NCBI GenBank assembly: GCA_001724265.1
Contig: MEDY01000362.1
Location: 1-45,957, forward strand
From: Rhizaria sp. SCN 62-66
Taxonomy: Eukaryota
Length of the DNA stretch: 45,957 bases
Direction: 5' to 3'
Positions 8,712 through 45,957 of this stretch are shown here, in pieces. The notes beneath the pieces were generated by a model. It worked only from the letters and a program-made list of their open reading frames with translations, was not told the DNA's origin and did no database searches. Both the position numbers and the translations under genes were made by a program. The first letter of the stretch is position 1; every line of letters begins with the position of its first letter.

Positions 8712-9552
8712 GGTGGCAACGGTGGGGGCAGTGCAGCAGCAGCCAGTCGAGTTTGCGAACGGGAGCTTGAGTGAGGGTGAAAAGCTTGGTCTATATAAAG
8801 GCAAAGAGTATTAGCAAGAGGACAATAAAGTTAGCCAAGAGTGAAGATACAAAAGGGAAGAAGTCTTGGTATGAAAACAGAGCTAAAGAGAGACAGGGAC
8901 GGGAGTTGGAGGTTGATTAATGGGAAGCCAAGGTGACGTTGCTGGGTTTCAAAGGACGAAGGTGAAGCTCGACCAAGACGGCACTCTATGGGCGTCAAAA
9001 ATGAAGAATCCAAGCATACTTGTTGTATATTTCCCCTAAATCTCACTAACAGTGTGTACTGACGAGCGCAAGACCATGATCTGGCTGTGTCAGCAGCCCA
9101 CAGCAATAGATCACCTGGACGACTGTGAGCTCCGGTTGGTCGAGTCAGTGATCAAAAAGTGACCGTGTACAGTGCCATTTGGTCAAAACTGGAGAAGGCT
9201 AAGCCAAGCCGCCCCCTTGGCTCGGGTCTGCTCGGGGATCAATATCTCCGTTCCCTCATCGTCAAACGCGTCATAAATGCTTGAAATAGTGCATACCCGT
9301 GTTATTATATCTTGCCCAAAACTTACCACTGCTAAAAATGCCTGCTTCCCCTTCAAACTTGCCACTCCAACAGTCGCTTAGGGTTCCTTTGTGTGGCAGC
9401 TTAAACGCAGTACCCCCCTCTGCTTATCCCCTTCCAGCGGCGGCTTCTTTCCACCTCCGCAGCCGGAAACGCGCGTGCGGGCCCTGTATTTTGGCCTTTC
9501 AGCCTGTTGCCTGGTTTTTGCGCTCTCACCTCGCTTCCACGCCTCTGCCTCG

Positions 9553-12500
9553 ATGGGTTTCCGTCCCTGGTCCTTCGTGGTGGCCCTCGCTGTGGCCGTC
9601 TCACTCGCCGCAGCCACTGCAACTGGTTCTGCGCCGCCGCCTGGTGTGACTGCCCCGCGTTGGGAGATGCACTCTGTTTCCACCGCTCCCAATTCTTTCC
9701 TGGCCAGCTTCTCCCCTCTGCTCGTCTCGGTGGCGTCCACCCTCACTGCGCCCTTCACCACCGCTGCCGCCACCGGCAACACTGCTACTGATGCTTCATC
9801 GTCGCTGTCTTTCGCTGACTCCGTCGCTGCTGCCGCGCACACCAAGCACTCCCGTCCCCCGCGCCCCGCCCGTAGCAACTTTGCTGCTCAGGCCATCGCG
9901 AACAACGCTAAGACGAACCATGCTGTTGAGAGTGGATTCTCTTTACAATCCATCGCCGTCTCCGCCGTGACGTCCATGGCCTCTCTCTCCGCCTCCGTTG
10001 CCTCCACCCTGGCTTCGACCCGCGCTTCCTACTCTGAGCCCGCTCCCTTGCGCGCCAAACTCGTGACCGACGACATCAACTGCTCCGCGGGCCTCTGCCG
10101 CAGCGGCATTAACGTGCTGCATGACTCCCCGCGTCCGTACTCGAACGGCCAGACACACATCCCCATGTCGCTCATCGAGATGGACTTTTCCAGTTCTGAC
10201 TCCACGAATTACCTCACGGGACTCGCGGTCATCGGTGCCGGTATCCCTCTGCTCTTCGCCATCCTGACCATCATCTCCTGCTGCTCCTTCTGTTGTGCCC
10301 GCTCGTGCTGCAACTGCTGCGGCCAGCGGGTCGCCACACAAAAGTACTCGGCCAAGTCCGTCTTTTGGGTCAAGGTCGGCCTTGCAGTCTGGCTTGCTGC
10401 TATGATCGTCGTCACCGTGCTCGCGGTGTACCTCAACCACGCCATGTCCTCGGGCCTCAACGCCACCGTCGACGCCGGTGACGCGACGGCCTGGCACATC
10501 GAAGCCCTGTCCTCCTCCGTCGCCGCCGTGGCCGAGCCGGTCCGCATGCGCGCGGACCAGCTCGCTGCCGTCGACGCCATTCTCACGTCGCTGCCTCTTA
10601 CCGCCGAGGCCGACGAAGTGCGGACGTGCTTCAGCGCCCACTCGTCTCCGGTGCTCAACGCGCAGGGCACGGCCGCCGTAGCCGTCCGCAGCGTCCCCGT
10701 CTCCGCCGCGGCCCAGCTGAGCGGTCTCCCGCAGGCCGCCGCCGCGCTCACGCCGCCCGCCCGCGCCGCCGCAGCCCTGCTGGCCTCCCGGTCAGATCTC
10801 TACGACACGAGTGCGGGCACAGCCGCGCAGCGGTTCAACCTCGCCAGCTCCGTGCTCTACGATGTCAAGACGTACAACGTGCTCGCCGTGGTGAACACCA
10901 CCAACGCCGCGGCGTTTTTCGACAACGCCGCCAACGCAGCGCTGCGGGCCCGGATCGGCTCGGCCCACGCGCTCACTCTGGCGGCCTCGCTCGACGCGCC
11001 GACCACCGAGGCGCCGTCGAGCGGGTCCGTGCGCGCGTACTCGAGCCTTATCACAGCGCTGAAGAACAACGCCAACGTGGACCCGAACTACGTGCAGACG
11101 GCGCTTGCCGGCATGTCGTCGGCGTCCCCGCTGGATAAGGGCACCTGTGACACGGTTGTGTCAAAGCTCACCGCTATCAAGGCCCTCTACGACGCCGTCA
11201 CGGCTGTGGAGACGAATTACCTGGGCAGTGAGTCCTCGTCGACCTGGGTGCGCGCCACCTTCTCCCCCGCTTATACGACCCTGTGGCAGTCCGCCGATAT
11301 CGCCGACAAACAGCTCAGCGCGACGCAGACCGCCGCCGTTGACGCTAACACTGCCGTCAAAGCCAACGCGCGCGCCGTCCTTATCGCGCTCGAGCGGCTT
11401 GACTTTTCCTCCGACGCCACGCAGTTCCCTTTTGCCGCCGCTGTCGTCCGGGCCGTGGCCACGCTGCGGGCCGCGCTCATGGCCGTCGACTCGCACGCCA
11501 CCACGTTCACTACGGCCATCAGCACGTTCAACACCGAGCTGACCAACTTGCATGACTCGTCGAGCGGCGCGACGCTGATCGACAACCCGCTCAAGCAAGG
11601 GTTGGACACCGCCGCCGCGGCCCCGGCTGCCAACATGGCCGCTGCCGACTGCATGCCCGACTCGCTGGGGACCATTCAGACTGCGGCCGCCGCGCTGGGG
11701 TCGATGCCCAGCCCGCTCGACACGACGTTGCAGCCCGCGCTGCCGGCGCTTAAGGCCCAGTTCGCGCTGGCGGCAGCCTGGGACGACGCCCTCACCGCGT
11801 TCGCCAGGGCTGTCACTGCGGCGCAGACGGCGCTCGCCAGCGCCAGCGCCAGCGCGGCGGCATCCAAACGCAACTACACCCAAATGGCGGCGTCGACCCA
11901 GGCGATGGGTATCCAGTTGAACACCAGCTCCGCCAACGCAGTGGCAGTTGACGCGGCGGCCGCGGCGGCTACGCAGGTTGTGACTGCCGCGCGGCTTATG
12001 CTCACGCCGACGCTGCTGGCCGCGTACAACACCACGTACAGCGTGCTGTCGAGCGCGCTGACGGCCAGCACCACGGCCTTGTCGGCGAGCACCGCGCTGA
12101 CTTCCGTCAACACCTACTTCACCGACGTCATGACGGCCGTGACGGACGTGCGCAGTGCGCTCACGGCCACGGCGTCGCACGTCGCGGCCACCCTGGCGGC
12201 CGTCGACTGCACCCGCGCGGCCACCAGCGGCGGCGACGGCTTCGCGGGCGTGTCGTCGGTCTCTCTCTCTGTGCTCGCCTCCAGTACGGGCGGGCTGCGT
12301 CTGCTGGTACCCTTCACTGCTACGGGCGCGCAGACCGGCATCACCAAGACGGCGACGGCGCTGACGAATTTCTCCTCCGCAGTTGCCCAGTTTAGCTCGC
12401 AATCGCCGTCGCTGTCCGCGTTGTCGGACGCGGCGACTGCGATGGCGCCCTTTTCGGCCGACGCACTGCCCGCAAGCCCCACGTCGCTGGCGAGAGACGT

Positions 12501-14445
12501 GCTCGAGGCGCAGAAGACGACGCCGGCCACCACGCCGTCGCTCTTCGCTAAGTTCCTCGACTCGACTGCGACCATCGACTCTCTGGCATCCGCGCTTGCG
12601 GGCAACCTCGGCTCCGCCTCGATCGTGTGCTCTGACGTCCTCTCCCGGCTCGACCCCAACGGCAGCTCTGGAACTGCGGGCTCGGCCAACATGCTGCCTG
12701 TGCTGGGCGCCGGGCTCGAAGTCACTGTCAACGGCACGCTCGACTCACTGCAGACGGAGGCGATGGCGGCGACCACGGCGCCGTTTCCACACCCGCCGCT
12801 GTATAGACACGCGTTCGGCACGCCTGAGTCTGCGAAGCTCAACGCCTACCTCACCGTGGCGTCAAAGATCGCCGACTCGCGGCCAGACAACCTGGCTGAC
12901 GTGCGCGCCACGCTTGACTCGGCTCTGAGCGCGGTGGACACCACCGTGACCAAGATGAATGACTTCGTGGACGGGTATTTCGACGCTCGTGTGACTGTCA
13001 AGCGCGACGTCTACGTGGTCGATGAACAGCGCCTCATCATCGTCGACGTCTTCGTGCTTGCCACTATGCTGTTTATCCTTATCGCGCTCATCACCTGCCT
13101 CAACCGCAAGCATAAGCCGATGATGATGCTGGCAATGCTGCTTTTCGGCATGGCTTTTCTCATCTTCATCATCTCCGTCGTCCACATTGCGCCTGGCATC
13201 CTCGTCTCGGACTTCTGCTACAGTGTGCCAGTGTCGATGACGCGCATCGCCGGCGAGTACGTCTCCCCCTCGACTCTGGCTGGTCTGTCGGCTTTCCTTG
13301 GCGAATCCTCCGCCGAGCCCCTCAGCGTCGAGGAGCTGTACGAGTACTTAGTCGACTGTAAGGGTCCCACCCCCGACGTCATCCAGCAGGTCCAGAACGC
13401 CTCCACTGACAGTGCAAGCATGCAGGAGCAGGCACTGGGCTCTCTGCGCTCCTCCGTCTCGGACACACTCGCCGGCGAGGACATTACCCTGGGCGGCACG
13501 CTTGCCGACGCCTTCAGCGGCATGGACGACCTGTCTGCCCAGATGGTCGCCTCGGCCAAGGCCATCGCGGATGAGATCCGGTGTGAGACCACGCAGGTGT
13601 ACCTCGACCCGCTGATCAATATCTCGCTGTGCCGCGACTTCTCGGGCGCCTTCGCCACCGTCGGGTGCGTGTTGTTCCTCTTCGCGCTGTGTTTGTACCC
13701 CGGTATTGTACTCTCCGTGCTGGCGTTTAAGCGGCTGAACAAGCGCAACGGGCTCGAGTGGGTCCCCAAGGCGCCCAAGGGCAAGTACAAGCAGCACCAC
13801 GCCGTGACTCTCAAGCCCGGCATGCAGGCCGCGCAGCTCAAGGGCTTTACACCCGCCGCCGTGGCCGCCATGTCGACGGCCTTCACAAACCCCATGGCCG
13901 ACAACGGCGGCGACGGCAGCGCGGTGGGCCGGTCCAACTCGGCCAACCAGCCCCTGCAGTCGCGCGGGTCCGCCATCCGTTCGAGCTCCGGCGTCGGCGC
14001 TGGCGCGGGCGCTAATGCCGCCCCGCGCGCGAGCGGCGTCTCGCTCGGCCTGGGCCCCGGGCCGCGGCCTTCGCAGAGCACGGTCGCCGTGGGGGCTGTG
14101 GGGGCCGCGCCGGGGCCGAACGCGCCGTCGTCGCCAGCGAATAAAAACGCGGCGGTGCAGCGCGGGACAGTCTACCAGGTCCCGAACACCCCCTCTCAGC
14201 AGCAGCAGCCGCAACAGCAGCAATCGCAACCGCACACGCCGCAGACGCGCACGCCCTCGGGGTCCTTCTCTCAGTCGCGTTCCATCACGACTCTGTACAC
14301 GCAGACGGCCAGCGGCAACGATATGCGGGCGCGCGTCCAGCCCGGAGCGGGTGCGCCGGGCCCTCAGAGGGCGAACATGGCCGGGACCCCGCGGGCCAGC
14401 ACCAGCGGCGCACCTGGGTCCGCGGTTGAGATGCAGCGCTTTTAA
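9553..14445 (+). CDS. Tweety/prominin-superfamily 5-TM membrane glycoprotein with signal peptide and greatly enlarged first extracellular loop; ~1630 aa
   Basis: Single long ORF with a signal peptide from ATG 9553 (MGFRPWSFVVALAVAVSLAAA). TM1 is followed by a Cys cluster (SCCSFCCARSCCNCC), then TM2, a ~865-aa loop, TM3/TM4 ending in the Tweety-type 'SDFC' motif, a ~145-aa loop, TM5 and a disordered cytosolic tail. Stop TAA. Confidence 0.7.
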   Translation: MGFRPWSFVVALAVAVSLAAATATGSAPPPGVTAPRWEMHSVSTAPNSFLASFSPLLVSVASTLTAPFTTAAATGNTATDASSSLSFADSVAAAAHTKHSRPPRPARSNFAAQAIANNAKTNHAVESGFSLQSIAVSAVTSMASLSASVASTLASTRASYSEPAPLRAKLVTDDINCSAGLCRSGINVLHDSPRPYSNGQTHIPMSLIEMDFSSSDSTNYLTGLAVIGAGIPLLFAILTIISCCSFCCARSCCNCCGQRVATQKYSAKSVFWVKVGLAVWLAAMIVVTVLAVYLNHAMSSGLNATVDAGDATAWHIEALSSSVAAVAEPVRMRADQLAAVDAILTSLPLTAEADEVRTCFSAHSSPVLNAQGTAAVAVRSVPVSAAAQLSGLPQAAAALTPPARAAAALLASRSDLYDTSAGTAAQRFNLASSVLYDVKTYNVLAVVNTTNAAAFFDNAANAALRARIGSAHALTLAASLDAPTTEAPSSGSVRAYSSLITALKNNANVDPNYVQTALAGMSSASPLDKGTCDTVVSKLTAIKALYDAVTAVETNYLGSESSSTWVRATFSPAYTTLWQSADIADKQLSATQTAAVDANTAVKANARAVLIALERLDFSSDATQFPFAAAVVRAVATLRAALMAVDSHATTFTTAISTFNTELTNLHDSSSGATLIDNPLKQGLDTAAAAPAANMAAADCMPDSLGTIQTAAAALGSMPSPLDTTLQPALPALKAQFALAAAWDDALTAFARAVTAAQTALASASASAAASKRNYTQMAASTQAMGIQLNTSSANAVAVDAAAAAATQVVTAARLMLTPTLLAAYNTTYSVLSSALTASTTALSASTALTSVNTYFTDVMTAVTDVRSALTATASHVAATLAAVDCTRAATSGGDGFAGVSSVSLSVLASSTGGLRLLVPFTATGAQTGITKTATALTNFSSAVAQFSSQSPSLSALSDAATAMAPFSADALPASPTSLARDVLEAQKTTPATTPSLFAKFLDSTATIDSLASALAGNLGSASIVCSDVLSRLDPNGSSGTAGSANMLPVLGAGLEVTVNGTLDSLQTEAMAATTAPFPHPPLYRHAFGTPESAKLNAYLTVASKIADSRPDNLADVRATLDSALSAVDTTVTKMNDFVDGYFDARVTVKRDVYVVDEQRLIIVDVFVLATMLFILIALITCLNRKHKPMMMLAMLLFGMAFLIFIISVVHIAPGILVSDFCYSVPVSMTRIAGEYVSPSTLAGLSAFLGESSAEPLSVEELYEYLVDCKGPTPDVIQQVQNASTDSASMQEQALGSLRSSVSDTLAGEDITLGGTLADAFSGMDDLSAQMVASAKAIADEIRCETTQVYLDPLINISLCRDFSGAFATVGCVLFLFALCLYPGIVLSVLAFKRLNKRNGLEWVPKAPKGKYKQHHAVTLKPGMQAAQLKGFTPAAVAAMSTAFTNPMADNGGDGSAVGRSNSANQPLQSRGSAIRSSSGVGAGAGANAAPRASGVSLGLGPGPRPSQSTVAVGAVGAAPGPNAPSSPANKNAAVQRGTVYQVPNTPSQQQQPQQQQSQPHTPQTRTPSGSFSQSRSITTLYTQTASGNDMRARVQPGAGAPGPQRANMAGTPRASTSGAPGSAVEMQRF

Positions 14446-25880: not shown

Positions 25881-26486
25881 CGTGGCAGACGTGAAAACTA
25901 GCAAGGCGGTAGTATAGGGACGCAGCAAGAGCGCCGGAGGGGGATGGAAGCGTCTGGGAAGAGAGGAGGAAAAGGGGAGCTAACTGGGCGCGGGAGAAGG
26001 ACTAGGAGGTACATAAGATAGTGAGTTATAGAAACGCAAAACAAATATTATAATGGAAACACGCGCTAAATTTGCTTTTCATCTTCAGGTTTACTGCTAG
26101 CGGAGAGTATATTGAACACGGTCAGGTGATTGCAACACGCGAATCGACATCGACCCGGAGCCAAGAGCGGGCGGCTGTGACCGTGAGCCAACCGTTGAGC
26201 TGAAAGGTGCGTGATGAGTTCAGCAAAAGCAGATGCGCGACTTGATAGGCACATGAAGTAGAGTAATATTAACATATTTTGTATTAATACTAGATAAATA
26301 ACTTAAACGTACTATTGGTGCGTCGTCCCCCAAACAGGAAGCGTGATAGATATCGCGCGAAAGTAGCCGAAGCAGAAGCGGAAGATTTGCTCCGCTTGCT
26401 CGCTTTTCTCTCACACCTCTACTCTCAACCGATATTCTCTCTGTTTGCGTCCGAGCTCTTTATACCTCACAGATCTAGCCACCGCT

Positions 26487-27788
26487 ATGCGCTTTAAGTT
26501 CCCGCGCGCGTGCGCAGCGTTCGCCCTGCTTGTCGCAGTCGCGGTACTGGTGCTCGCTTCCGTCTCCTCAGCCTTTGCCTCAGCGTCGAGCTACTCGTTC
26601 AAGGGGGGCAAGGGCGGCCTCGCGAAGGGCGGCGTCGCCAAGGGTAGCAATTTAAAGGGCGCTGTTGTCAAGAACACACCGTTCAAGGGCTTTGCCCCTC
26701 AAATCCAGAGCAAGAAGGAGCCTGTCATCATCCATAGCCAGAGCCAGAGCCAGAGTCAACAGGTTGAGAGCCAGAGCATGAGTCCTGTGGCGAAGAGCAG
26801 CAACGTCAAGGGATCGACTCCTGTTGTAAAGAGTGCCCCTGCTGTCAAGAGCACTCCAGCTGTCAAGAGCGCACCGGCTTTCAAGTCTCAAGGTCGAGCC
26901 CCTGTTCAGGTGCAAGCGCAGACGCAGGCGCAAGCCCCGCAGGTCCAAGCCCAGGCACAGTCGCAGCCGCAGTCAGTGCCACCGTCTCAGGTGCAGTCTC
27001 AGTCTGTACCGCAGACCCAGTCCCAGTCGCAGGCGCAGTCAGTGCAGCAGAGTCAGTGCCAGTCGCGGCCCCAGGCGCTGTCACAGTCAGTGCCACAGAC
27101 TCATTCTCAAGCGCAGTCGATGCCGCAGACGCAGGCCCAGTGCCCCCGAGCTCAGAGCCCTTGCCAGGCACGGTCTCAGTCCCAGTCGCAGTCTCCGCAG
27201 TTGCGGCCGCAGTGCAGCTCGATCCGCCACAGTGCCACAGTCTCCCACCCCAATCCCATCTTAGACAGCGCCAGCTCTAGCGCGAACATCAACACTTACC
27301 CTGACGCGACTCCGAGCGCTGAGAGTGGTGCAGGGACGGAGGCGGAGACGGGGGCGGCGGGCGGGAGTAGCCGCGCCGCAGCGACGGCGGCGCAGACCGG
27401 CATGCTGCGCTGGCTGCCGCGGGACCTCCTCATGGCGCCCTGCATCCAGCATGGGCACGAGGGGCTGGACGCGAATGCTAACGCGGAGGATGGCAGCGGC
27501 GGGTCAACAGAGCGCCAAGGCTGCGTGATCCTGCCTCCGTCTCTTCGTGACCCTAGTGACCTGACCGAGACGGACCTGAGCCGGCTGTCCTACTGCGACG
27601 TCTACATCCGCCTCGTCAGTCTGCGGGCCCGCGTTGCGTACGACCCCGACGACTTCGTGTGCGCGAATGAGCTCGTCTGCCCTGTGGGTGCCGCGAGCCG
27701 GTGCGGCGACGCGTGCTATGACAGTGATAGGTTCCGCTGTGTCGGGGGCAGTGAGTTGCGACCAGTGCCCGACTTGGTCGCGGACTAA
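26487..27788 (+). CDS. Secreted protein: signal peptide, Lys/Gly-rich block, VKS(A/T)P repeats, Gln/Ser-rich linker, C-terminal CBM52-like Cys module; 433 aa
   Basis: Signal peptide MRFKFPRACAAFALLVAVAVLVLASVSSAFA. C-terminal 'YDPDDFVCANELVCPVGAASRCGDACYDSDRFRCVGGSEL'. Stop TAA. Confidence 0.75.
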   Translation: MRFKFPRACAAFALLVAVAVLVLASVSSAFASASSYSFKGGKGGLAKGGVAKGSNLKGAVVKNTPFKGFAPQIQSKKEPVIIHSQSQSQSQQVESQSMSPVAKSSNVKGSTPVVKSAPAVKSTPAVKSAPAFKSQGRAPVQVQAQTQAQAPQVQAQAQSQPQSVPPSQVQSQSVPQTQSQSQAQSVQQSQCQSRPQALSQSVPQTHSQAQSMPQTQAQCPRAQSPCQARSQSQSQSPQLRPQCSSIRHSATVSHPNPILDSASSSANINTYPDATPSAESGAGTEAETGAAGGSSRAAATAAQTGMLRWLPRDLLMAPCIQHGHEGLDANANAEDGSGGSTERQGCVILPPSLRDPSDLTETDLSRLSYCDVYIRLVSLRARVAYDPDDFVCANELVCPVGAASRCGDACYDSDRFRCVGGSELRPVPDLVAD

Positions 27789-28137: not shown

Positions 28138-31100
28138 TTAATTATAGTTCATGTCATCGCGGTTGTCATTATAGCTACTATACCGTTCCTTCGCGTCCCG
28201 AATCAGCACATCATAGTCGAGGTTCACATACCCCAGGACCCCTTCTCGGAACTTTTTCAAGAACAGGGCCTGCGCACGCCGCTCCGTGTCCGGCGACAGG
28301 TCAAACTTCTCCTCCTCTCGCGTCAGCGGTAGCAGGTGTGGATCCACCCGTTCCCAGTCAACCTCGGTGCCGTGGCTCCGGTTGGCCCAGCCAGCTTCCG
28401 CCGCAGCGGTAGGCACAGACGCAGAATGGTGAGGCTTTGACTGGGGCGTGGACTCGGACATTGACTGGGACGGGGGCAGGTCACAGTCACTAATGGAGGA
28501 CGAGGAGTAGGTTTTGCGGGGTAGTTTATCTGCCCACGCTCCGGCCGCCCCGTGCCGCAGTCGGTCCTGCGCGAGCCTGACGCGCGCCCTAAGGAACCGC
28601 GCCCGCGCCTCGGGCTCCGTCACGGGCGCGCCCCATAGTGCGTGCGTATAGATGTGGTGCCAGGGCTTGACGTTGCCGTCGCGCCACTTATTGGCGCGCG
28701 CGATGGCTGAGTAGAGGGTGCTGACGTCGGCGGTCGGCAGCCAGTCGGGCAGGGAAAAGACGCGTGTGTACGAGAAATAACCTAGGGAATCGAAACATAT
28801 GCAACAAAACAAGGGTTATTAATTATACCTGTGAGTTAAATGTCAATTTATGAGCGCGTGATGAATAAAAACATGAGAAATATGCTTAATTCAACTTATC
28901 AGCAAAGCAAACCGTAAGTAATAGCGAACATAAAGCAAAAAAGTAATAATGATAGTAATGCAAGTAATGCAAGAGTGAACAAAGCGTACCCTGGCTGTTA
29001 AGCTCTTGTAGCAGCGCGGCGCACATCGCGTCGGGCTCCACGGCCTTGTCGGCGACACAGCCTGCGAGCGCGAGCCTGGCCGCCGCCGCGGGGCCGGCCG
29101 GAGATGCCTCGAGGTGGGGTGCCATGACGCCGGGCGTATCCAACACCACGACGGGGGGATCCTCGCAGACGCGGAAGCCTTGCACGTGGCGGGTCACGCC
29201 CGGCTGGGGACCCACGCGGGCCTTGCCGCCGGTGCCGGAGGCGGGGAGGTAGACGTCGCCCAGGCCCGAGAGGCCGTAGCCGTCACTATTTGATGTGTGA
29301 GAGAAAAACAAAGAGGAACAGTAATACAACACAGTCTAGATGAGAATTAAACAAAAATAAGTATATCAATTGAATGATAATATTGTTTTCCATTTAATTA
29401 CTAGGTTTCATGCTAGGTAATCGACATATGCGCGAGATACAATTGTTTTAGAGTGTGATGAAGGGACGCGTACCTGTAGGCACCAGCAACAACAGCAGAG
29501 CGCTTGAGAGCGTTGATGATTGTGCTCTTGCCGACGTTGGGGAAACCGCAGATCAGCACAGCGGTGGGCACGGCGCGAAAGCGGCGCGGCGGAGCGAGGC
29601 GCTGGATGATCGCGAGCAGCGTTTGCGGGGCAGCTGCGGAGGAGAGGGAGTCCGTCAGCACGACTGCGCCACGACCACCTAAACGCAAAGTTCATGAAAA
29701 ATGAATAAAATAAGATACTGATGTTTAAGCCTTTAATTAAAATTAAATGAACATTTAACAAGACATTATTTCCATCTAAAGTACACCATTACTATTGTAA
29801 GGCGCTTAAGATATACGTGTAATATGCGAATGTTGCAGTTCGCGAGTCGTACCTGGCAAGATCTTGTACGGGCACCACGCACGACCGCCACCAGTGAGGA
29901 GCTTGTTCAAATCCTTCTTGTCAGCAAGGGGGCTGACCCACGCGGCAGCAGGGTTGCTGATAGTTTTATTCTTACCCCCTTTGCCACTTGCACTGCTGTT
30001 GCTGTTGCTGTTGCTGTTTTTGCTGGTACTCTTGTGGTGGTGGTGATGGGAGAAGCTGCGGGGAGCGAGCCCTTCCTTCACCAGCTGCGTCTGGTACTGC
30101 CGCGATTGTTCTGCACTCACTGCAGGCCCCTCGGGCAGCCGGAGCAGGGCTGCTACAGCGCGGGCGCGGGCCTTCTGGCGAACCGCCTCCCAGTCTACAT
30201 TCGATACAGTCTCAGTGTTTGTCAGGCCCGTAGTCGAAGTTGCAGCAACGTCATTTTGACTCTGGTTTTGGTTCTGGCTGTTTTGAGCTTTGTTGAGCGC
30301 CCTTTGAATTTTCGCATCAACTTCAGCGTCTGCCCCGGCCTCCGCCGCCGCCACCATTTCCCTCCAGTGCAGCGCCGGCGCACCCAACCCCAGCGCGTTG
30401 TTAGACTGCGACTATGATTGGGAGCCGTTGACCGTGGGCAACTGACCGTGAGCCCGCAGCAGTTCCCTGGCCACCGCGTCAAGCAGCCCGGTCCCGGCCC
30501 TGGCAGCGGCGCGCGCGGCGGCGGTGGCGCTGTTTCCCGCCGCAGCCCCGCCCGTGGGTCCCAGCGCCAGGTCGGCTTTGTTGAGTACCACGACGCGCGG
30601 TTTCCCCGCGGCTACGCGGTCCAGGAGCGGGTTGGCCGACGACAGCGCACACCGGGCGTCGCGGACCTCGATCACCAGCTCCACGTCCTTGAGCTTCTCG
30701 GACATCGCTTGCACCGCGGCAGCCATGTGACCCGGGAACCAGTTGACGCCCGCAGCGGCGTCGGCTGTGAGGGCCGCCGCCGAATACGCTACGGCGGCGG
30801 CGGTGGCGGCCGCGGAGGCCGAGACGGAGGGGGAGGCGGCCGCAATGTTGGAGCCGTGGACGCCAGGTAGCTGGGCAAGGATACGATCCTTCTTCTCCCC
30901 ACTTTTGTTCTGAGAGTTTGCGATATTACTCCGCGCACTCTTGCTGTTGCTATTGCAGTTCATGCTGCTATCGGAATAGTCGAGGACCGCGTCGGCGTCG
31001 CTGTCGGACGCATACGGGTCTCGGCCCACGGCACTTGATGCACCCGCGCCGCCCAGCAGTGACGGTAGGGCCCCTGCGGCCACGGCGGCGGCCAAGCGCT

Positions 31101-32124
31101 TCGAGGCCTGCACACCGCGGGGCACTGTCGGACCCTGACTATAACTGTGAGCCTGATTGTGTTTGTGTGCATTGCTAGACTAGCCCTGACTCTGGTTTTG
31201 ACTCTGACCGAGGCTGTCGTGGTGCGGCGACCGGGCCAGCGCGTTCGAGGCCGCAGCCAGCGCCGCCGGCGACAGCCTCTGCTTGGTCGATTTGTTAAGC
31301 CGCCTCTCTCGTTCCGCTTTGCTAGCCCGCCTGGCCTCGGCCCGGTCCAGGCGGGTGTGCTGTGCGGCGTCGGCCGCGGCGCTGAGCCCGCCGATGCCGC
31401 CCGCGAAGGCGCTCTCGTCCGCGGTGATGACGTGGCCCGATTCTGTGATGTAGGTCGGAGCAATACCCGCAGTCGTTGTAGCGGCAGCAGCAGAACCAGA
31501 GTTGGTGTGGGCAGAGCTATTGGGGCTACTACTGCTATTGATGTGGCTGCTGGGGAGGATGCGTGCAGTGCGGGAGGAAGCTAGGGGAGTGTACTGAGCA
31601 AAATATGCATCATCGCTGGTAGTACTGGCAATGCTAGCAGAAGCAGAGCTGGGGCTCGTGTCTAAGCCTGAGTTAGGGATGGAGACAGAACCAGAGTCCG
31701 TGCGAGAGTGAGAGCTTGATCTCTTGCTCGATTTTGACAGCAGAACAGCCGCAGATGCATACCTAGTGGCGTTAATTTGCTTGCTATGCTGTTGCTGCTA
31801 TTGCGGCTGCTCTTGTTCCAGTTCTTGCTGTTGCTGTTGCTGATGCTGATGCTGTTGCTGGTGCTGCAGCTTACGGAGTTTCTCTTCCCTGGAGAGCGGG
31901 CGCGCGGGGCGGGCAAAGGCGGTCGGGTCCAGCGTCGCGTGTCGGCGGGACTCGGATAATACGGCGGCGTAGGCCGAAGCAGTCGAGGCATGCGCATTAC
32001 ACACAGCCGATGCAACGGATGTTGCCGTAGTTACTGCTGCCGAGAGCCCGCCGACTGTGGCGACAGTACGGGCAGCCCCGGTCGTGACGAGACTGCCATA
32101 GAGCGCGGTGGAACGGGAAAGCAT
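28138..32124 (-). CDS. MTG1: Mitochondrial ribosome-associated GTPase (MTG1/RbgA/YlqF family); exons 32124-29853, 29678-29474, 29285-28990, 28781-28138; ~1138 aa if three in-frame TAGs (31798, 31180, 30412) are read as Gln
   Basis: Circularly permuted GTPase motifs in order: 'NWFPGHM', 'VIEVRDAR', 'NKAD', 'GFPNVGKST', 'PGVTR', 'LDTPG', 'LALAG', plus C-terminal 'FLKKFREGVLG'. N-terminus MLSRSTALYGS resembles a mitochondrial presequence. Three GTACG introns with compatible phases. Stop TAA. Confidence 0.85.
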
Positions 32125-32932
32125 AGCAGATGCAGAGGCGTGGTGCTTGCAGCAGTGGAAAAGAAGCGAGGGGGAGCGCGCGGGGCCGGTAGTGCGGCGG
32201 TGGGGCGGAGAGAGGGCGACTTTGCGCAGTGGAGTCGAATAGAAGTAGGCGGCTTGCGCGGTAGGCAGACCTTTACTAGAAATAACATTGGAAAAAAGAC
32301 GCAAATTAGTTAAACATTATCATATTGCTTTTATGCGTTAACAGACGGTTAATTGAGACAGATATACATTATTTTATGATTTGCACGTAGTCTCCTCCTC
32401 TAGCTCAAATCCAGAGCCGAGAATGACACAGTTTCGGTGCATCCTACTATGAGGAGTACTCGATGTATATGAGTGCGTATATAGTTTCCATATAATACTC
32501 CGACGAAGATACACATACACTATTATTTGGGGGATATATGACGTGATCAGCGCAACACGAGTGCGAGAATTGCGACGTCGCGCCTCGAATCCCTCGACAG
32601 CTGCAGTCGCAGCGGCGGCGACAGCAGCCACTATTTTTGAACACGGACATGGGTTAGATGGGGCGAGGGTGCCGACTACGGACTGCGCAATGCGACAATC
32701 CTTGCGCTTGCGCTGTTGCATCCACCACGCCTGGGCACTGGAGCTGAGAAAGACGAACGCGGGCTCGCTGCTGTGGGCACAAACGTATCATTAGTGCTGA
32801 GAATAAGTAATCAAAACTTTCGTAGTAGTAAAAAATCGTGTGTTGTGCTAGTAAGCGTTTTCTTTGATTACAGGCAGACGCTTTAGCAGCTCCTACTCAG
32901 CCACTTCCTTCACGATCCAATCGACTGATGCA

Positions 32933-33238
32933 ACCGCGGCGCGATACATCCTCTCGCTGTCGCGCGCGCTGGACCACTGTCACTCGAAGTACATCAAGCG
33001 CCGCGCCATCAAGCCCGAGAGTATCCTCTTTTACGCGCGCGGCGGACTCAAGATTGCTTACTTTGGTTGGTCGGTCCACGCGTTGCAGAACGCAGCGGCA
33101 CGCTGTGCTGCACGTTCGACTACCTGCCGCCCGAGATGGTCAACAGCAAGCGCCACTGTTCACACGCACGCTGTTGACCTGTGGTCAATCGGCATATTGC
33201 TGTACGAGTTTTTGTTGGGTCCACTGCCGTTCATTTAG
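32933..33238 (+). pseudogene. Aurora kinase pseudogene fragment (subdomains VIa-IX)
   Basis: 'TAARYILSLSRALDHCHSKYIKRRAIKPESIL...LKIAYFGWSVHA', then a shifted frame giving 'TLCCTFDYLPPEMV', then 'VDLWSIGILLYEFLLGPLPF'. HRD is changed to RRA and DFG to YFG, with frameshifts and no N-lobe. Confidence 0.85.
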
Positions 33239-33628: not shown

Positions 33629-33781
33629 GGATGCAGGTGGGCACGCGAGCGCAGTAGTTGTCTTGGTAGTGCTGGCCGAAAAACCTTTCCAGCGGGACTT
33701 TCTCGGTGCGAATGCGGTCGACGATGGATTTTAATGCTTCGGCGGCGTAGGCCACGGCGCAAGAAGGGTGCAGAAGCATGA
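33629..33781 (-). pseudogene. Degenerate duplicate of the last ICMT exon
   Basis: Aligns by eye with 36919-37068: MLLHPSCAVAYAAEALKSIVDRIRTEKVPLERFFGQHYQDNYCARVPTCI versus MLLNPFCAVAYAAVAWKFFDDRIRTEEVPLERFFGQEYRDYRARVPTRI. Confidence 0.9.
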
Positions 33782-33785
33782 AATG

Positions 33786-36428
33786 TCAGCTCTGCCACTC
33801 CTTCTTAAGAGAAAAGTAACTGTGGTATTGCCTTGCAGTTTGCTGACCCTTTGCAAAGGCCTTCACGGTCTTCGGTTCTTTCGCATTTTTTAGCACGTTG
33901 ATGAGTTCTGGAAGCTCTTGAACCGGTTCAGTCTTAAGATCTTTGAGATATCCTAAGATTGTTAATGACACATTTTTTTCGAACTCTGGTGCCTGCTGCG
34001 TCTCTATGGAGTGAAATGGCTGACACTGCAACGTACCAGTGGTAATCATATCCACAATAACTTCCTTAGAGGGGATTTTGAGCTTAGTCTTGGTCACTAA
34101 ACTAATTACGCTTGTTAAGTTATCTTTTAAGATTGCATCATGGAACGCAACCGGATCAGTTACAGCTTTTAAGGCATAACGGAAGCTGCCTTGAACAGCT
34201 TTGGAAATACTTCTTACCTCGGTGAAACCCAGAGTATTGAGCCCTGTGATAATCTCGTTATATGACCAGGCATACGACCATAACGGAATGACGCAGATGT
34301 CTTTCGGCATACAGTCATGCTTTACCAGATTAACGCAGTTGTGACTTATTTTAGGAGAGGTCGTAATTACATTGGTTGCCTTATTCATCAGGCTGTAGAT
34401 AGGACTCAATTCACCCTTTTCGTCGGAATCAAAAAGATACACCGTATTCCACTTTAATAACATAACCTTTGCTCCGTTCTCGTCTAAACGTTCCACAGTG
34501 CCACTGCCGTTACGGTACAGATCAATGTCATTCCTTGGCATGTGACAAATGACATCCATTCCGAACTCAAAAAGCGCGACATACCATATGAGGTTGAGCA
34601 TAACTGATTTCCCAATGCCAGGCGGGCCGCTCACAACAAACTGCCTCCCGAACTCTTCGTGTCCAAACTCCGTGTGTTTAAAACCCGCATGGATTAACTT
34701 AGACACGCCCAGTTGAACCAAGATAGTCTTGTAAAGATGATAGTGTGACACCCGCAACATCAACAAACGAACGGCTTCAGAGTTGTAACCTGTGCCTCCA
34801 AAGGGAAAGTGGGGCATGGTGTCGGTGCTATTTGGGTTCTCAGGGACCTCAAGGATCTGAAAGACTTTGTTCTCACCCGTAGCATCATTAACAGTCCCCC
34901 ATTTCATATTAGGCTGCAACATGGCGAACGTTGCAAAGTTAACTTTGACTTCAGTTAAATGCTTAAGCAATTTAAGTTCCGTAATTTCCTTCAGCTCTGC
35001 TTCGGTTGCACTCCGCTGATTCTAACGCAGCTATGCCTCAGCCATCTTACGTTCGCCAACAGCCCACTGAAACATATCATTCGCATGACGCAACGTCTTT
35101 TGTGCAGCACGCAGTTGCGCTTTGGTGCTCTGAAGAATCTTGATTTGAGCCGGCAGCAGCCCGTTATGGTTGATTGGCAGCGTTTTCATTCTGAGTTCAG
35201 CATCAGTCACTTTGATCTTGGCCGTCACCACATTGTGCTTTTGTTCCGCCTCTCGGAACACATCTTGCGCCAGTTGGCGCTTATCCTTGGCCAATTGTAA
35301 CTAGGCATTGACCTTCCTGTGCTGGGCCTTGGCCACGGTATACTAGTATTGATATGTCAAAAGGTCCGACTGTGAACCTACTTTTTCAGGTTTGGGTGCG
35401 CTTGTGTTCACTACAGCTTCAGCAACGTCCATCAACTGCTTAGCTTCTTCTTTACTTCGCTTCGCCTCAATACAAGCCTACTCTGCCGCAAGGGTCGCTA
35501 ACTCGGTTTCTTTCTTTGCCAGGTTGGCTTCTTCCTTCACCAACGCAGCCTTAGCCATGTCGAGTTTAGCTTGAGCGACTGTCACATCTAGTTCAGCCTT
35601 CGCCTTCTCAGCAGCAACACGGTCGCGTTCAGCTTCTGTGTAGGGTTGTGTAGTCGTAATAATCTTGACAAGCTTGGAACTCGCTGATTTGAGCTACTTT
35701 TCGCAGCGTGCAACGCTCAACATCTCCCTGTCGATAGACCTCTTTGTAATCTCGATTAGCGACTGATACCACACGCGTTCTTTTTCATTTTCTAAAAAAA
35801 GAAGAGGGAAAGCAGATTAAATGGGGTTAAATCATGTGAGGTACTCGTATACTTTAAATAACCAAGGATTAACTTTAAGAATATCCCTTAAGATCAAGTG
35901 ATGATTATAAAAGTCAACAGACAAATGTTAGAGCCTCAATGCAAACAGTAACGTACGACTCGGAGCTTTGTTCTTGTCTTTGTCTCGAGCGCTGTTGTAA
36001 CAGTGCTGTGGCGACGCGGCCGATCGCTTGACGCCACCTGTAGTAACTCTGGTCGCTGTGGCGCCCGCATCTGCCTTGCCAGCAGTGGTGAACGCGCGGG
36101 CGACGGCGCCGACCACCGGCGACGCAGCAGCTGCCAGCGTCTGCTGCGGCTGCGGCCAGATCGGCGGCGCCGAGGCCCACACTTCCGCCCGAACGCGGGC
36201 CAGCGCGGTGTTAAGTGATGGGGAGGGGTGAGGGTCCGCAGTGGGAATTGATGGAAAGGCTAGGAGAGGGGGGCTTGGAGCGGAAGAGATTGCAACGGCG
36301 GACATCTGGATGCCGACTGAGCCGGATTGGGGTCTAGGGGTGGCAGAACGACTGCAACTAGCAAGTAAAAAGGTGCAGGATGTGTGCGGTGCAATGCAAC
36401 GCATTAGACGCTTGCTAGCATATGACAT
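33786..36428 (-). CDS. Coiled-coil plus Crinkler/RHS-type P-loop NTPase protein; exons 36428-35957, 35791-33786; ~825 aa if six in-frame TAGs are read as Gln
   Basis: A phase-1 intron 35956-35792 (gtacgt...ttttttag) joins ORF 35928-36428 to a frame that runs to 33786 broken only by TAG. It encodes an Ala/Glu/Lys-rich coiled coil, then 'FVVSGPPGIGKS' (Walker A), 'VYLFD' (Walker B), 'ITTSP' and 'IPLWS', a layout typical of CRN/retrotransposon-hot-spot NTPases. Stop TGA. Confidence 0.65.
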
Positions 36429-36904: not shown

Positions 36905-38422
36905 TCACGCGATAAAGGGGATGCGAGTGGGCACGCGAGCGCGGTAGTCCCGGTACTCCTGGCCGAAAAACCTCTCCAGAGGCACTTCCTCGGTGCGGAT
37001 GCGGTCGTCGAAGAACTTCCACGCTACGGCGGCGTAGGCCACGGCGCAAAAGGGGTTCAGCAGCATGACTTGGAGTCCAACGGCCCAGAAGAACCAGCCG
37101 CAGTAGCTATAGACACACAGAGAGAGTATGGCATGTTAGATCTTATCAAATTTACATAAATATTGCACGGGTTACACAAAGTTATATTATTTACGTGATA
37201 TACTGACTAAAACGCTCATAATATCAATTCATGTTGTTAGATATAAAGTTAAGTGAATATTAGATGGTTTCACTTGTAACCCCGCTCAGTTGATCTTGCC
37301 ATCCCTTTGTTCGAGGTTATAGAACAGAGATATTATTTTCTTTTCAGGTCTAGTTCACTGGACGTACGACGGGTGGCGCGAGAGCGCGTAGACCCCACTG
37401 GTCACGAGCACGTGTTCCGCGCGCTTCGAGTGCTGGATCAGGTGCGTGAAGCTGGCCCCGGCCTCCCACATCGCCAGCGACCGCATCAACTGTCCCGCTG
37501 CGGCCACGGCAGCGCCCGCCGCGGCGAGGACCGTGAGCAGGGAGAGCGTGCCGGTGGTGTCGGTGGAGGCCCGGAGCTTCCACCCGGGGCAAAGGAGCAA
37601 CTCGAGAAGGTACTCGACGACGGCGGCGCGGACGGCGTACTTCATCTCGACGGAGTCAGAGAGCAAAAACGCTACAGGTTAAAACATGCAAAAGCAAGTG
37701 AAAATAAAACATATTCACAATTGAAGGGCGTGCATTGATGAGAGAGAAATCGATTGTGAGAGCAAACGGAGCGATGAGGAAGTGGTTAAAACGAAGAGAC
37801 AGAGAGATGTATATGAGAGCATATTTCAGCATATTTCGAAAATAAAACTTGAAGCTGAAGAAACCAAGCGAAACAAGAGTGTGACATAGACACATTATTT
37901 AGATAAGACACCGTTTATGGATATGCCAACCGTACCTTTGGTGGTGAGGTCCTGCGGGTGCGCGAGGCCCTGGAGCATGAACTCACACCAGTGGAAGACG
38001 CACATCGCGAACACAAACAGCGCGATGTTCCAGTACGCGGGCCACGCGAAGGCGGCCCAGAGCGCGGAGGCCCCCACAGCGCCCAGCGCAAGCCCGGTGA
38101 GCGCGGCCTGGCCGAGCCCGCGAGGGGAATACTGTGGGCATGCGCGGAAGGGGGCGGTGAAGCGTTCCCAGGCGGCGCTGGTGTGGGACAGGCCCGGGAC
38201 CGCGAAGAGGGCGGCTAGGGCGCGCGTGGATGCTTCGCCAGTGGTGCGCAGCCCGCGCTGCGCAAGGGACATCCACGCGGGCTGTTGCGGGCGGGCGGTG
38301 GTCGCGGTGGCGGCGGCGGGGCGGGCGGAGGCAGAGGCATACTGCTGAGACTGGGACTGGTACTGCTGAGGGAAGGCGGGGGAGCCGCCGCTGTCGGAGT
38401 CGGAGTTCTCGGAGTCGGACAT
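36905..38422 (-). CDS. ICMT: Protein-S-isoprenylcysteine O-methyltransferase; exons 38422-37936, 37671-37368, 37106-36905; 330 aa
   Basis: 'FHWCEF', 'AFLLSDS', 'MRSLAMWEAGASFTHLIQ', 'HVLVTSGVYALSRHPSYCGWF' (restored across an intron) and 'RIRTEE...FFGQEYRDYRARVP'. Stop TGA. Confidence 0.92.
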
Positions 38423-42571: not shown

Positions 42572-43238
42572 TCAGGGCAGATTAGAGATACGTAACAAGG
42601 CACCAGAAAGGGATGACAAATGAAACGAGATACAAACAAGGCCGGACTACACGGGGAATAAAAAAACCTGTGTTTTTGTGTTGTTTGATGCGGTAAAAGC
42701 GTGCATGGCGGAGTGCAGAGACCCCACGTGATGATCAATGTCCGGCAGAGGCAGATTTCACACGAAAACCCTCTGCTCAGACGCCGCCAATAAATAAAAA
42801 ATACTCTAGCATCACTGTCCTTGCGCAATATATTCCAGTATGCAACTCTGCAACGCGCACAAGCACCAGAATACTATTTTTCGTTCCTTGACCATAAGAT
42901 TTACCACTGATCTTGGTCGACAGGCGGTCAAATGCATTTCGGCGTGGTTCGTAAAAAGTCTCCGCGGATGGAAGCTGCAACCAACTTGAAGCGAGTATAT
43001 CAAACAACATACATCGACTTAATATGAAAGTGTTATCAAGCAAAGGTTCTTTAATCGCATTATTTAAAAGACTCTAAATGCGGTTGCAAAAGTATAACTT
43101 GAGTGGATGCGGTTATTACTACTATATTCTCTATCTTTTCTCATGCGGAATAACTTGAACATTGTCGTATTCTTCAAACTTTGCGTGCTGTTCATGACGT
43201 TTCCTTGCTCTGCCATGGCCCAGCTACGTTACGGCACG

Positions 43239-43586
43239 ATGAACAAGTCCTACTTGCTCTGTCTGATTTTTGCGCTGCTTGCTGCCGCCGCGAGCGCGTC
43301 CTTCTGCGGCCCCAGCGAGCGCGAGTGCACCGTCGAGCTGCGCGGTCAAACCCACATCGCGTGCTACTCGCCCACGACGCACCGCTGCCTCGAGTCGGCG
43401 CGTATCCTTGCCCCGCGCGAGCACGATACGCGCTGCGGTGACGGCACAATTTCCTCCGAGACCCACGTGTGCCACCGCGGCGGACTCGTGTGCCCCGTGT
43501 CGAACCCCGACGTGTGCGGGTACTCATGCTACAACAGCAACGAGCTGGGCTGCAACCGTGGCGTACTGACCGTCCTGCGCCACTAA
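43239..43586 (+). CDS. Small secreted Cys-rich protein built from CBM52-like repeats; 115 aa
   Basis: Signal peptide MNKSYLLCLIFALLAAAASA. 'ACYSPTTHRC', 'CGDGTISSETHVC' and 'LVCPVSNPDVCGYSCYNSNELGCNRGVL'. GC-rich island in AT-rich flanks. Stop TAA. Confidence 0.75.
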   Translation: MNKSYLLCLIFALLAAAASASFCGPSERECTVELRGQTHIACYSPTTHRCLESARILAPREHDTRCGDGTISSETHVCHRGGLVCPVSNPDVCGYSCYNSNELGCNRGVLTVLRH

Positions 43587-44246: not shown

Positions 44247-45957
44247 TTAATTGGAAGCTGCGTTGAGATCCTTGTGAATAACGATGACAGGGGCAGAAGC
44301 CGCTGAGCCAACCTGATAAGGCGTCTCTGCTTCGTTAACAGTCGTCTCGCTATTGAAATCCTCCGGCGCTGTGTCCTTCTCAGCGGAAGCAGCGGAAGCC
44401 TGAACCTGGTTTGGGGCTTCGTTGCCGTTGCTGTGGGCCACTTCGTCAGGCTCTTTTACACATACGTTAGCAGTAGCGGACGCAGGCTTGTTATCGGGCT
44501 CCGCAGCACCGAGGTGCGCGCCGTCTTCGTCAACGATGTGATTACCGGCACATGCGCCCGCGTTTACTTCAGCGTTGGTGTCAGTGTAAATGTTGCTCCC
44601 GGTGTTCTCGTTAGGGGTGATCACGGCGACAACGACAGGAGCGTTAGGATCAGTATCACCTGGGGCGGTCATGTTCTTGTTTTCTGCCTTGTCGTCTTTG
44701 TCGGCCTTGCGGCGGCAGCAAAGGCAGTACAGCACGACGATGATGATGATAATCAGCGCGACACCACCGACAGCAGCGCCGATGATGATCGCCATATCAA
44801 TGCCGCCGCCACTTCTGGAGGACTTGGTGCCGCCGTTGTCAGTGCCCGTGTCAGTGCCACTGACGGTGCCGGTGCCAGTCTCAGTGCCGCTTCCGGTGCC
44901 AGTGTCTGTGCCACTGCCACCTCCGGTGCCAGTGTCAGTGCCACTGCCGCTGCCGGTGCCAGTGTCTGTGTCGGTGCCCGTGTCAGTGCCACTGCCGGTG
45001 CCTGTGCCAGTGCCACTGCCGGTGCCAGTGTCTGTGTCTGTGCCGGTGCCGCTTCCGGTGCCAGTGTCAGTGTCACTGCCGGTGCCATCTTCGGTGCCAG
45101 TGCCAGTGTCAGTGCCGCTGCCGGTGCCACCTCCGGTGCCAGTGTCTGTGCCGCTGCCAGTGTCTGTGCCGGTGCCAGTGTCAGTGCCACTGCCGGTGCC
45201 GGTTTCAGTGCCACTGCCGGTGCCAGTGTCTGTGTCTGTGTCTGTGCCTGTGCCGCTTCCGGTGCCAGTGTCAGTGCCACTGCCGGTGCCGGTGCCTGTG
45301 CCAGTGCCGGTGCCAGTGTCAGTGCCACTGCCGGTGCCAGTGTCAGTGTCTGTGCCGGTGCCAGTGTCAGTGCCACTGCCGGTGCCGGTGCCAGTCTCTG
45401 GAACAGCGGGAGCGCTACACATGGCGTCCGACGTCAAAAACCCGGCACTACATGTCCCGCTTTCGGCGCCCATAACGTAGCAGCTCTTGGTGGCGGCGCA
45501 GTACGAGCAGCTGACCGAGGCAGTGCTGGCGGCCATGCACGAGGCGCATGTGTCAGCAAGCGGGAGACAGACTGCGTAGTCAGCGAGCGAGGTCATGGTG
45601 GAGCTGCTGGCCTGATTTGAGATAATGCCGACGTACTGCTGGTGCAGCGCGCTGCTCGTTGCCGTGTCGGTAGTGCTGGCGCTCGAGTCAGCGCCGATGA
45701 TGCGCACGTTAACCGTCACCACGGAGAAGTTGCGCGCCGTCGCGAGGGTCGAGAACCCGTACGGGCTCTCGTCTAGGCTGTGGCCGGCAGCGACGCTGCT
45801 GTCAGTAAAGGTATTGGACGAAATGTATATCACCTGCACGCGCGTCGTACTGGTGTTAATCTTTACGGCAATGTGGTTTGCCAGCATTGATTCAAACGCA
45901 CTGACGACAGCGGCGTCGTTCTTGCTGGCCGGCGCAAGCTCGCCCTGGCCCGCCTTG
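44247..45957 (-). CDS. Type I membrane protein, 5'-partial: PSI-like Cys module, Gly/Thr/Ser/Asp mucin-like stalk, TM helix, acidic cytosolic tail
   Basis: Frame is open from the window edge to TAA at 44247. '[24 protein letters not shown]...C...C', then a (GT/GS/DT)n stalk, then TM '[26 protein letters not shown]' followed by RRK. Confidence 0.8.
44837..45395 (-). repeat. Coding minisatellite (6-nt-based units, ~24-nt higher-order unit such as GCCGGTGCCAGTGTCAGTGCCACT) encoding GTGSGTDT repeats
   Basis: Tandem degenerate repeats read directly; they translate to (TGTGSGTD)n. Confidence 0.85.

Follow-up and report, generated by a model that had tools for sequence, protein, structure and literature searches.

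The nuclear genome to which contig MEDY01000362.1 belongs almost certainly reads UAG as a sense codon throughout. We consider it probable, at roughly two chances in three, that UAG is read as glutamate while UAA and UGA are kept as stops, a reading that we base on sequence comparisons. A copy of tRNA-Glu would have undergone one anticodon base change (CUC to CUA) and would be charged by glutamyl-tRNA synthetase; it would decode UAG but not UAA, and an altered eRF1 would bind UAG poorly. If correct, this combination would be a further nuclear code, and one outside the ciliates. A first-pass annotation of the window (the whole stretch of 45,957 nucleotides that was analysed) had already proposed that UAG is a sense codon, and the frames that stay open after TAG, the gene ends, the CUA tRNA, and eRF1 now provide more evidence for this than that annotation had.

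A minus-strand gene with six in-frame TAG codons

The frame that runs from 35792 to 33786 on the minus strand comprises 668 codons, and TAG is its sole interruption: there is no frameshift, and no TAA or TGA occurs ahead of the terminal TGA (Table 1). All six TAGs lie within the 274 codons of the coiled-coil segment, in which 10 CAA and 7 CAG codons remain intact. The donor (C/gtacgt) and the acceptor (tttag/A) give an in-phase junction with the codon CAA, and the spliced gene model has 825 codons. Paralogue L011 has the intron in common, with an identical donor context (CGAGTC followed by GTACGTTA) and an identical acceptor phase; no intron-spanning contig was found among the contig joints listed. 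Pieces of exon 1 are 44-58% identical in paralogues L005 and L011/L012. In residues 51-130, the best of seven heptad registers has L, I, V, M, or A at 17 of 22 a/d positions, as compared to 5-14 for the other six registers. The continuous frame, the matching phases of donor and acceptor, the coiled coil, and the restriction of the interruptions to TAG with CAA intact had all been described in the first-pass annotation, and they hold. In the downstream part of exon 2, we take GPPGIGKS (34605-34628) to be the Walker A motif and VYLFD (34428-34442) to be a Walker B-like motif.

Table 1. Features of the window that bear on the reading of TAG (positions are those of the window).
Feature	Position	Strand	Remark
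Three TAGs in Q/S-rich inserts of the gene called MTG1	31798-31800, 31180-31182, 30412-30414 (30412..31800)	-	
Degenerate duplicate (82%) of the upstream ICMT 3' end (36919-37068)	33629..33781	-	
P-loop NTPase part of exon 2	33786..34970	-	TGA end five codons past the last homology to L002
Coiled-coil segment of exon 2 (TAGs 1-6)	34971..35791	-	Homologous to the coiled coils of L002, L003, L005, L010, L011
In-frame TAGs 5 and 6	35022..35033 (35033-35031 and 35024-35022)	-	Homologue alignment poor
In-frame TAG 4	35301..35303	-	Glu in the three best-aligned homologues; elsewhere Asp (2), Leu (1)
In-frame TAG 3	35343..35345	-	Glu, His, Ala in homologues
In-frame TAG 2	35478..35480	-	Common to paralogue piece L010 (70% identical)
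In-frame TAG 1	35694..35696	-	TAG aligned at the equivalent site in L011 (35% identical)
Intron, 165 nt, GT-AG, phase 1	35792..35956	-	Donor context and acceptor phase common to L011
Predicted exon 1	35957..36428	-	157 codons + 1 nt, low-complexity N-terminus, putative start ATG

Contigs from run X2, which belongs to a separate study, have the same letters at all six TAG sites. Contigs from runs X3 and X4 (probably one data set) also agree at six of six. Four runs contain most of the stretch; two are labelled as bioreactor (one of these is a possible source of the genome), one is labelled as wastewater, and one has no label. Among the listed runs that contain the stretch, none is labelled as RNA. 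Run X7, whose RNA nature is only a guess, covers three of the TAG sites with two records of 151 nt (depth 2), and we did not count it as evidence.

The gene is one of at least 16 family matches in the genome. Among the other 15 matches, six contain stops, and every stop is TAG. A search of 1.84 billion representatives identified 14 relatives, some of them from the same genome. In these proteins, a coiled coil separates the low-complexity N-terminus from a P-loop NTPase domain. For exon 2 and for L002, a paralogue that is free of TAG, there was no significant Pfam match. The language-model neighbours of L002 (0.98-0.90) are unnamed eukaryotic clusters along with Crinkler and RHS clusters (at 0.98 and 0.94, respectively). 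A structural model of L002 (pLDDT 74) has an alpha/beta C-terminal domain and weak matches to AAA+/STAND-type NTPases (best E 3e-4), and no nuclease was among the listed whole-model fold matches.

The window copy aligns with L002 up to residue 495 of 765, where the homology ends, and it lacks about 270 C-terminal residues of its closest paralogue, which the first-pass annotation had overlooked. The point of truncation directly adjoins the duplicate of the ICMT 3' end. Because the homology stops there and the duplicate comes next, we view the gene as a truncated CR-like element, and its position between the ICMT 3' end and the copy suggests insertion with local duplication. As judged from its sequence, the gene is a putative C-terminally truncated Crinkler/RHS-like coiled-coil NTPase. 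The part that was lost is probably a nuclease domain, by analogy with the CR proteins (PMC11342252), which have an ATPase + REase architecture and likewise form a multi-copy family with a P-loop NTPase. The gene differs from these proteins in having a long coiled coil in front and, in the window copy, no C-terminal domain; also, exon 2 and L002 have no Pfam match to CRN or RHS. It behaves as a CR-type element, and we do not class it as a Crinkler effector. Nearby, the remnant of a frameshifted kinase gene (32921-33232, plus strand) is 83% identical to an intact kinase in L068; we presume it to be Aurora-like from its look.

In-frame TAG across the genome

In a test that covered about 0.9 Mb of the 34.9-Mb assembly, coding frames continued open for at least 60 codons past 11 of 13 TAGs, as compared to just 4 of 41 TAA or TGA codons (p = 2e-6). 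Fifteen hand-picked gene ends use TAA (nine) or TGA (six) and never TAG, and TAG accounts for none of 15 stops with AT-rich DNA following. Of 142 kinase matches, nine have a lone TAG, one has a lone TAA, and four have mixed stops. Of those nine lone TAGs, four fall in domains that align well, and two or more are intron acceptors. In-frame TAG is also found inside eRF1, a UBE2J1-like gene, and MetRS, and some TAGs are common to paralogues that are 70-73% identical. The TAGs in DEAD and kinesin genes (1 of 43 and 1 of 54 matches) were rejected as sense codons, as both are intron acceptors. Codon-model screens were too strict or noisy. As for the gene at 30412..31800 (Table 1), we presume the name MTG1 from its motifs, since the three pieces that we scanned had no Pfam match.

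Under the standard code, the TAGs would result from errors of assembly or from nonsense mutation of decaying copies, and the CUA tRNA that is described below would be a weak suppressor or a pseudogene. It is true that the window copy is truncated and lies beside two gene remnants, and that one paralogue TAG stands opposite Trp, as is typical of a TGG-to-TAG change. However, if six random nonsense changes had occurred in this gene, the probability that all of them would be TAG is 0.007-0.010, which agrees with the earlier claim that neutral decay is unlikely to give TAG alone. The identical letters in the contigs of another study, the frames that remain open past TAG, the TAGs that paralogues have in common, and the presence of TAG inside eRF1, the UBE2J1-like gene, MetRS, and four kinases all argue against the standard code as well, and we consider it very improbable.

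TAG is rare as a sense codon. Among 29,679 aligned dynein codons, there was no exonic TAG (five TAGs were found and all were read as intron acceptors); the same codons include 116 GAA, 11 TTA, and 5 AGA. The window gene's family has 29 TAGs per 9,848 open-frame codons, some of which are outside exons. Because UAG is very rare, it would be visible chiefly in genes that evolve fast and are richer in AT, the window gene being one. The rarity fits a recent or inefficient reassignment with one tRNA gene, and it may mean that the reassignment is at an early stage.

The CUA tRNA, eRF1, and the amino acid

A T-loop-anchored CTA pattern matched five places in the genome, and one of these is a tRNA, the single gene that we found with a CUA anticodon (L189:109-181, which is G000:C84:76008-76080 on the minus strand). 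It is followed by a T-run, and contig C84 also carries kinase and kinesin genes. In a comparison to 22 isotypes, tRNA-Glu(TTC) not among the genes compared, it aligned without gaps to the genome's tRNA-Glu(CTC) (score 21), with which it has the acceptor start and the T-stem in common; the next isotype scored 9.5, and tRNA-Gln scored -5.5 and -14. Among the best 30 of 130 matches in a phage collection (E 0.004-0.6), 17 are tRNA-Glu, four are other tRNAs, nine have no label, and none are tRNA-Gln. The best plasmid match is tRNA-Glu(TTC) (E 7e-6). The D and T arms are letter-identical to those of tRNA-Glu(TTC) of an actinobacterial plasmid, by ancient conservation or by transfer, and the acceptor stem matches that of the host's tRNA-Glu(CTC). 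The suppressor pattern had no match in viral contigs. ARAGORN yields a cloverleaf for this tRNA, while by energy folding the cloverleaf is incomplete (z -1.5).

The CUA tRNA has U11-A24, U13.G22, A46, and no base 47, which are Glu elements in E. coli (PMC9976931). The genome's tRNA-Gln(CTG) also has U11-A24, U13.G22, and a short variable loop, and C36, a Glu determinant, is absent from the CUA tRNA. In E. coli, amber anticodons can attract charging with Gln, so mixed decoding is possible.

The only eRF1 gene that we found in the genome itself contains an in-frame TAG, in a gap-free alignment, at the position of human E107. The TAG is repeated in metagenome contig L191 (100% identical over 1626 nt), which is possibly the same data as the genome. 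Across 120 homologues, this column has 109 Glu, 10 Asp, 1 Val, and no Gln. E107 is the only highly conserved TAG site that we found; the closest relative, P0126 (84%), has Val there, so constraint on the site may have weakened in this lineage. The exon (L047:1500-1830, in G000:C63) has strong codon bias (GC3 of 0.89), yet it contains one UAG, which may possibly reflect autoregulation.

The motifs of eRF1 that recognize stops are also altered. GTS has become GSS (T32S), and we see G57S and T58K as well, while L69 and S70 are unchanged. T32 and G57 are present in all 120 homologues, and K58 is present in one; P0126 has T58K but not T32S or G57S. T32 contacts and bonds the G of UAG, and it is changed to Gly in Iotanema (PMC5304391). 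In a scan of metagenomes for eRF1, L191 represented this genome again, nine other loci were distant, and there was no close relative. Separately, in-frame stops occupy Gln positions in the metagenome eRF1 genes L195-L200, a pattern of ciliate-type codes; these genes are unrelated to this genome.

We compared candidate amino acids site by site. For Pfam domains, 36 windows were scanned, 10 matched, and 8 sites were used, and the summed bits were 500.8 for E, 500.6 for K, 499.3 for Q, 495.4 for S, 488.6 for Y, 485.3 for L, and 483.7 for W. The values for E, K, and Q are nearly equal, so this test does not split them; Leu, Trp, and Tyr were rejected at 12-17 bits lower. A likelihood test on 14 paralogue sites leans slightly towards Gln (E minus Q = -1.5, versus +7.7 +/- 2.6 for true-E controls and -9.1 +/- 3.3 for true-Q controls), and seven kinase sites, a set that retains low-complexity sites, gave +0.4. 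The likelihood test omitted four duplicate shared-TAG sites and also four kinase loci (L127, L128, L133, and L135). At individual sites, the UBE2J1 column (120 homologues) has 8 Glu, 36 Asp, and no Gln, and the TAG of a NEK-like gene is opposite Gln in one homologue, human NEK1. Two other sites were discarded as uninformative: a USP5-like TAG opposite Cys in one structure match, and a CaMK-like TAG opposite Tyr or Lys. Several TAGs sit in Q-rich runs. Nevertheless, of 525 positions in polyQ runs, one is TAG and 80 are CAA.

The first-pass annotation had predicted that TAG would alternate with CAG or CAA in paralogues. Gln is indeed seen at these sites, but so are Glu, Asp, His, Leu, Trp, and Lys, which refutes simple alternation with Gln codons and leaves read-through itself standing. 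Since most young TAGs would derive from CAG or TGG through a transition, mixed partners would be expected even if UAG encodes Glu. Glu and Asp partners are more numerous than Gln and His partners, which would be hard to explain if UAG encoded Gln, as mutation from CAG together with selection would enrich Gln partners.

These results bear on the earlier proposal that UAG encodes Gln (translation table 15, as in Iotanema), for which GlnRS would have to charge the Glu-like CUA tRNA, or a Gln suppressor would have to have been missed, given that 63 of 506 tRNA candidates were scored. The tRNA's U35, its pair 1-72, and its discriminator are GlnRS elements in E. coli, and the NEK1 site, the slight lean of the paralogue likelihood, and the TAGs in Q-rich runs point the same way. 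Conversely, the body of the only CUA tRNA is Glu-like, the pattern search returned no second tRNA, the eRF1 and UBE2J1 columns hold no Gln, and TAG is nearly missing from polyQ runs. We consider Gln unlikely, and annotation with table 15 probably inserts the wrong residue; under table 1, eRF1 is among the genes that are cut short.

Alternatively, UAG could be ambiguous, with a mixture of Glu and Gln, or with Glu competing against residual termination by eRF1. The E minus Q score between the two sets of controls, the near-exclusion of TAG from long conserved genes such as the dyneins, the single tRNA gene, and an eRF1 in which T32S retains the hydroxyl and L69 and S70 are intact would all fit. 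However, even a clean code would leave recently arisen codons with mixed partners, TAG ends none of the 15 genes, six leaky stops in the window gene would leave little protein, and eRF1 carries UAG itself. We view an ambiguous intermediate as quite unlikely.

Lineage and related codes

The GAPDH of the window has as its nearest named matches a protein labelled Lygus hesperus (78%) and Paulinella (73%); two relatives have a GAPDH that is 89% identical. In the tree, it falls in a 13-row clade (support 100/97) with the Lygus-labelled protein, and the neighbouring clade has the Paulinella row. The Lygus transcriptome is known to include exLh, a sainouroid rhizarian in which UAG encodes Leu, and we infer that the Lygus-labelled row is exLh. 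A search of the supplements of PMC5304391 gave no GAPDH. From this single gene, the host is likely a rhizarian and probably a sainouroid, and exLh is a probable relative. An insertion at the polyubiquitin junction is a marker for this group (Sainouroidea / Rhizaria), and a search for the junction pattern gave zero matches. The genome paper for Rosculus vilicus contains no passage on the genetic code.

Given this relationship, UAG could encode Leu as in exLh, and Leu does stand opposite 2 of 14 TAG sites in the window gene's family. But Leu is 15.5 bits below Glu at the Pfam sites and 19-20 log units below Glu and Gln in the paralogue test, the CUA tRNA lacks a long variable arm, and eRF1 keeps L69, which is Ala in exLh (PMC5304391). 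We regard Leu as close to excluded.

UAA and UAG nearly always have the same meaning. In exLh and in Iotanema spirale, as here, UAG alone is reassigned and UAA and UGA are stops, and a CUA tRNA is predicted there too (Panek et al. 2017, PMC5304391). The details differ: exLh has Leu with L69A in eRF1, Iotanema has Gln with the Thr of GTS altered (T32G), and here we find a Glu-type tRNA with T32S, G57S, and T58K. UAG is also far rarer here than in exLh, which has 384 UAGs in 71 genes. Panek et al. had transcripts only, whereas both the tRNA and the eRF1 changes are in hand here.

Another likeness is to the ciliate Oligohymenophorea sp. PL0344 (McGowan et al. 2023, PMC10553269), in which conserved columns and a Glu-like tRNA-Sup(CUA) also indicated that UAG encodes Glu. 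In PL0344, UAA encodes Lys, UGA is the sole stop, and there are ten CUA tRNA genes; the present genome has a single CUA gene, and its most frequent stop among those seen is UAA. In phyllopharyngean ciliates, UAG alone has likewise changed, several times within one clade, to Leu or Gln, and is used by 78-91% of genes (McGowan et al. 2024, PMC11687900). The lone-UAG codes listed in that paper are Leu, Gln, and Ser (Scotinosphaera), with no Glu. We did not find a code in which UAG encodes Glu and both other stops are kept in the literature that was searched, which did not extend to subscription journals, theses, or bioRxiv supplements.

A fuller scenario, which we hold as rather doubtful, is an early code change in which UAG is read as Glu by one suppressor that competes with eRF1. 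The suppressor was possibly acquired from outside, and the UAG in the eRF1 mRNA would tune the level of release factor by feedback. Because a relative in the same clade gave UAG to Leu, UAG would have been weakened first, with two later captures by different tRNAs. If the host is a sainouroid, then two relatives have different residues for UAG, and the codon-capture and ambiguous-intermediate models could be compared directly.

Besides GAPDH, the window contains, at 44717-45404 on the minus strand, a long repeat of Gly-Thr-Asp/Ser that belongs to a membrane protein with one predicted pass. On the plus strand, a 1687-codon open frame (9382-14445) has a weak Prominin match under the curated cut-off, and two genes (26367-27788 and 43098-43586) match the Pfam family Carb_bind (PF10645).
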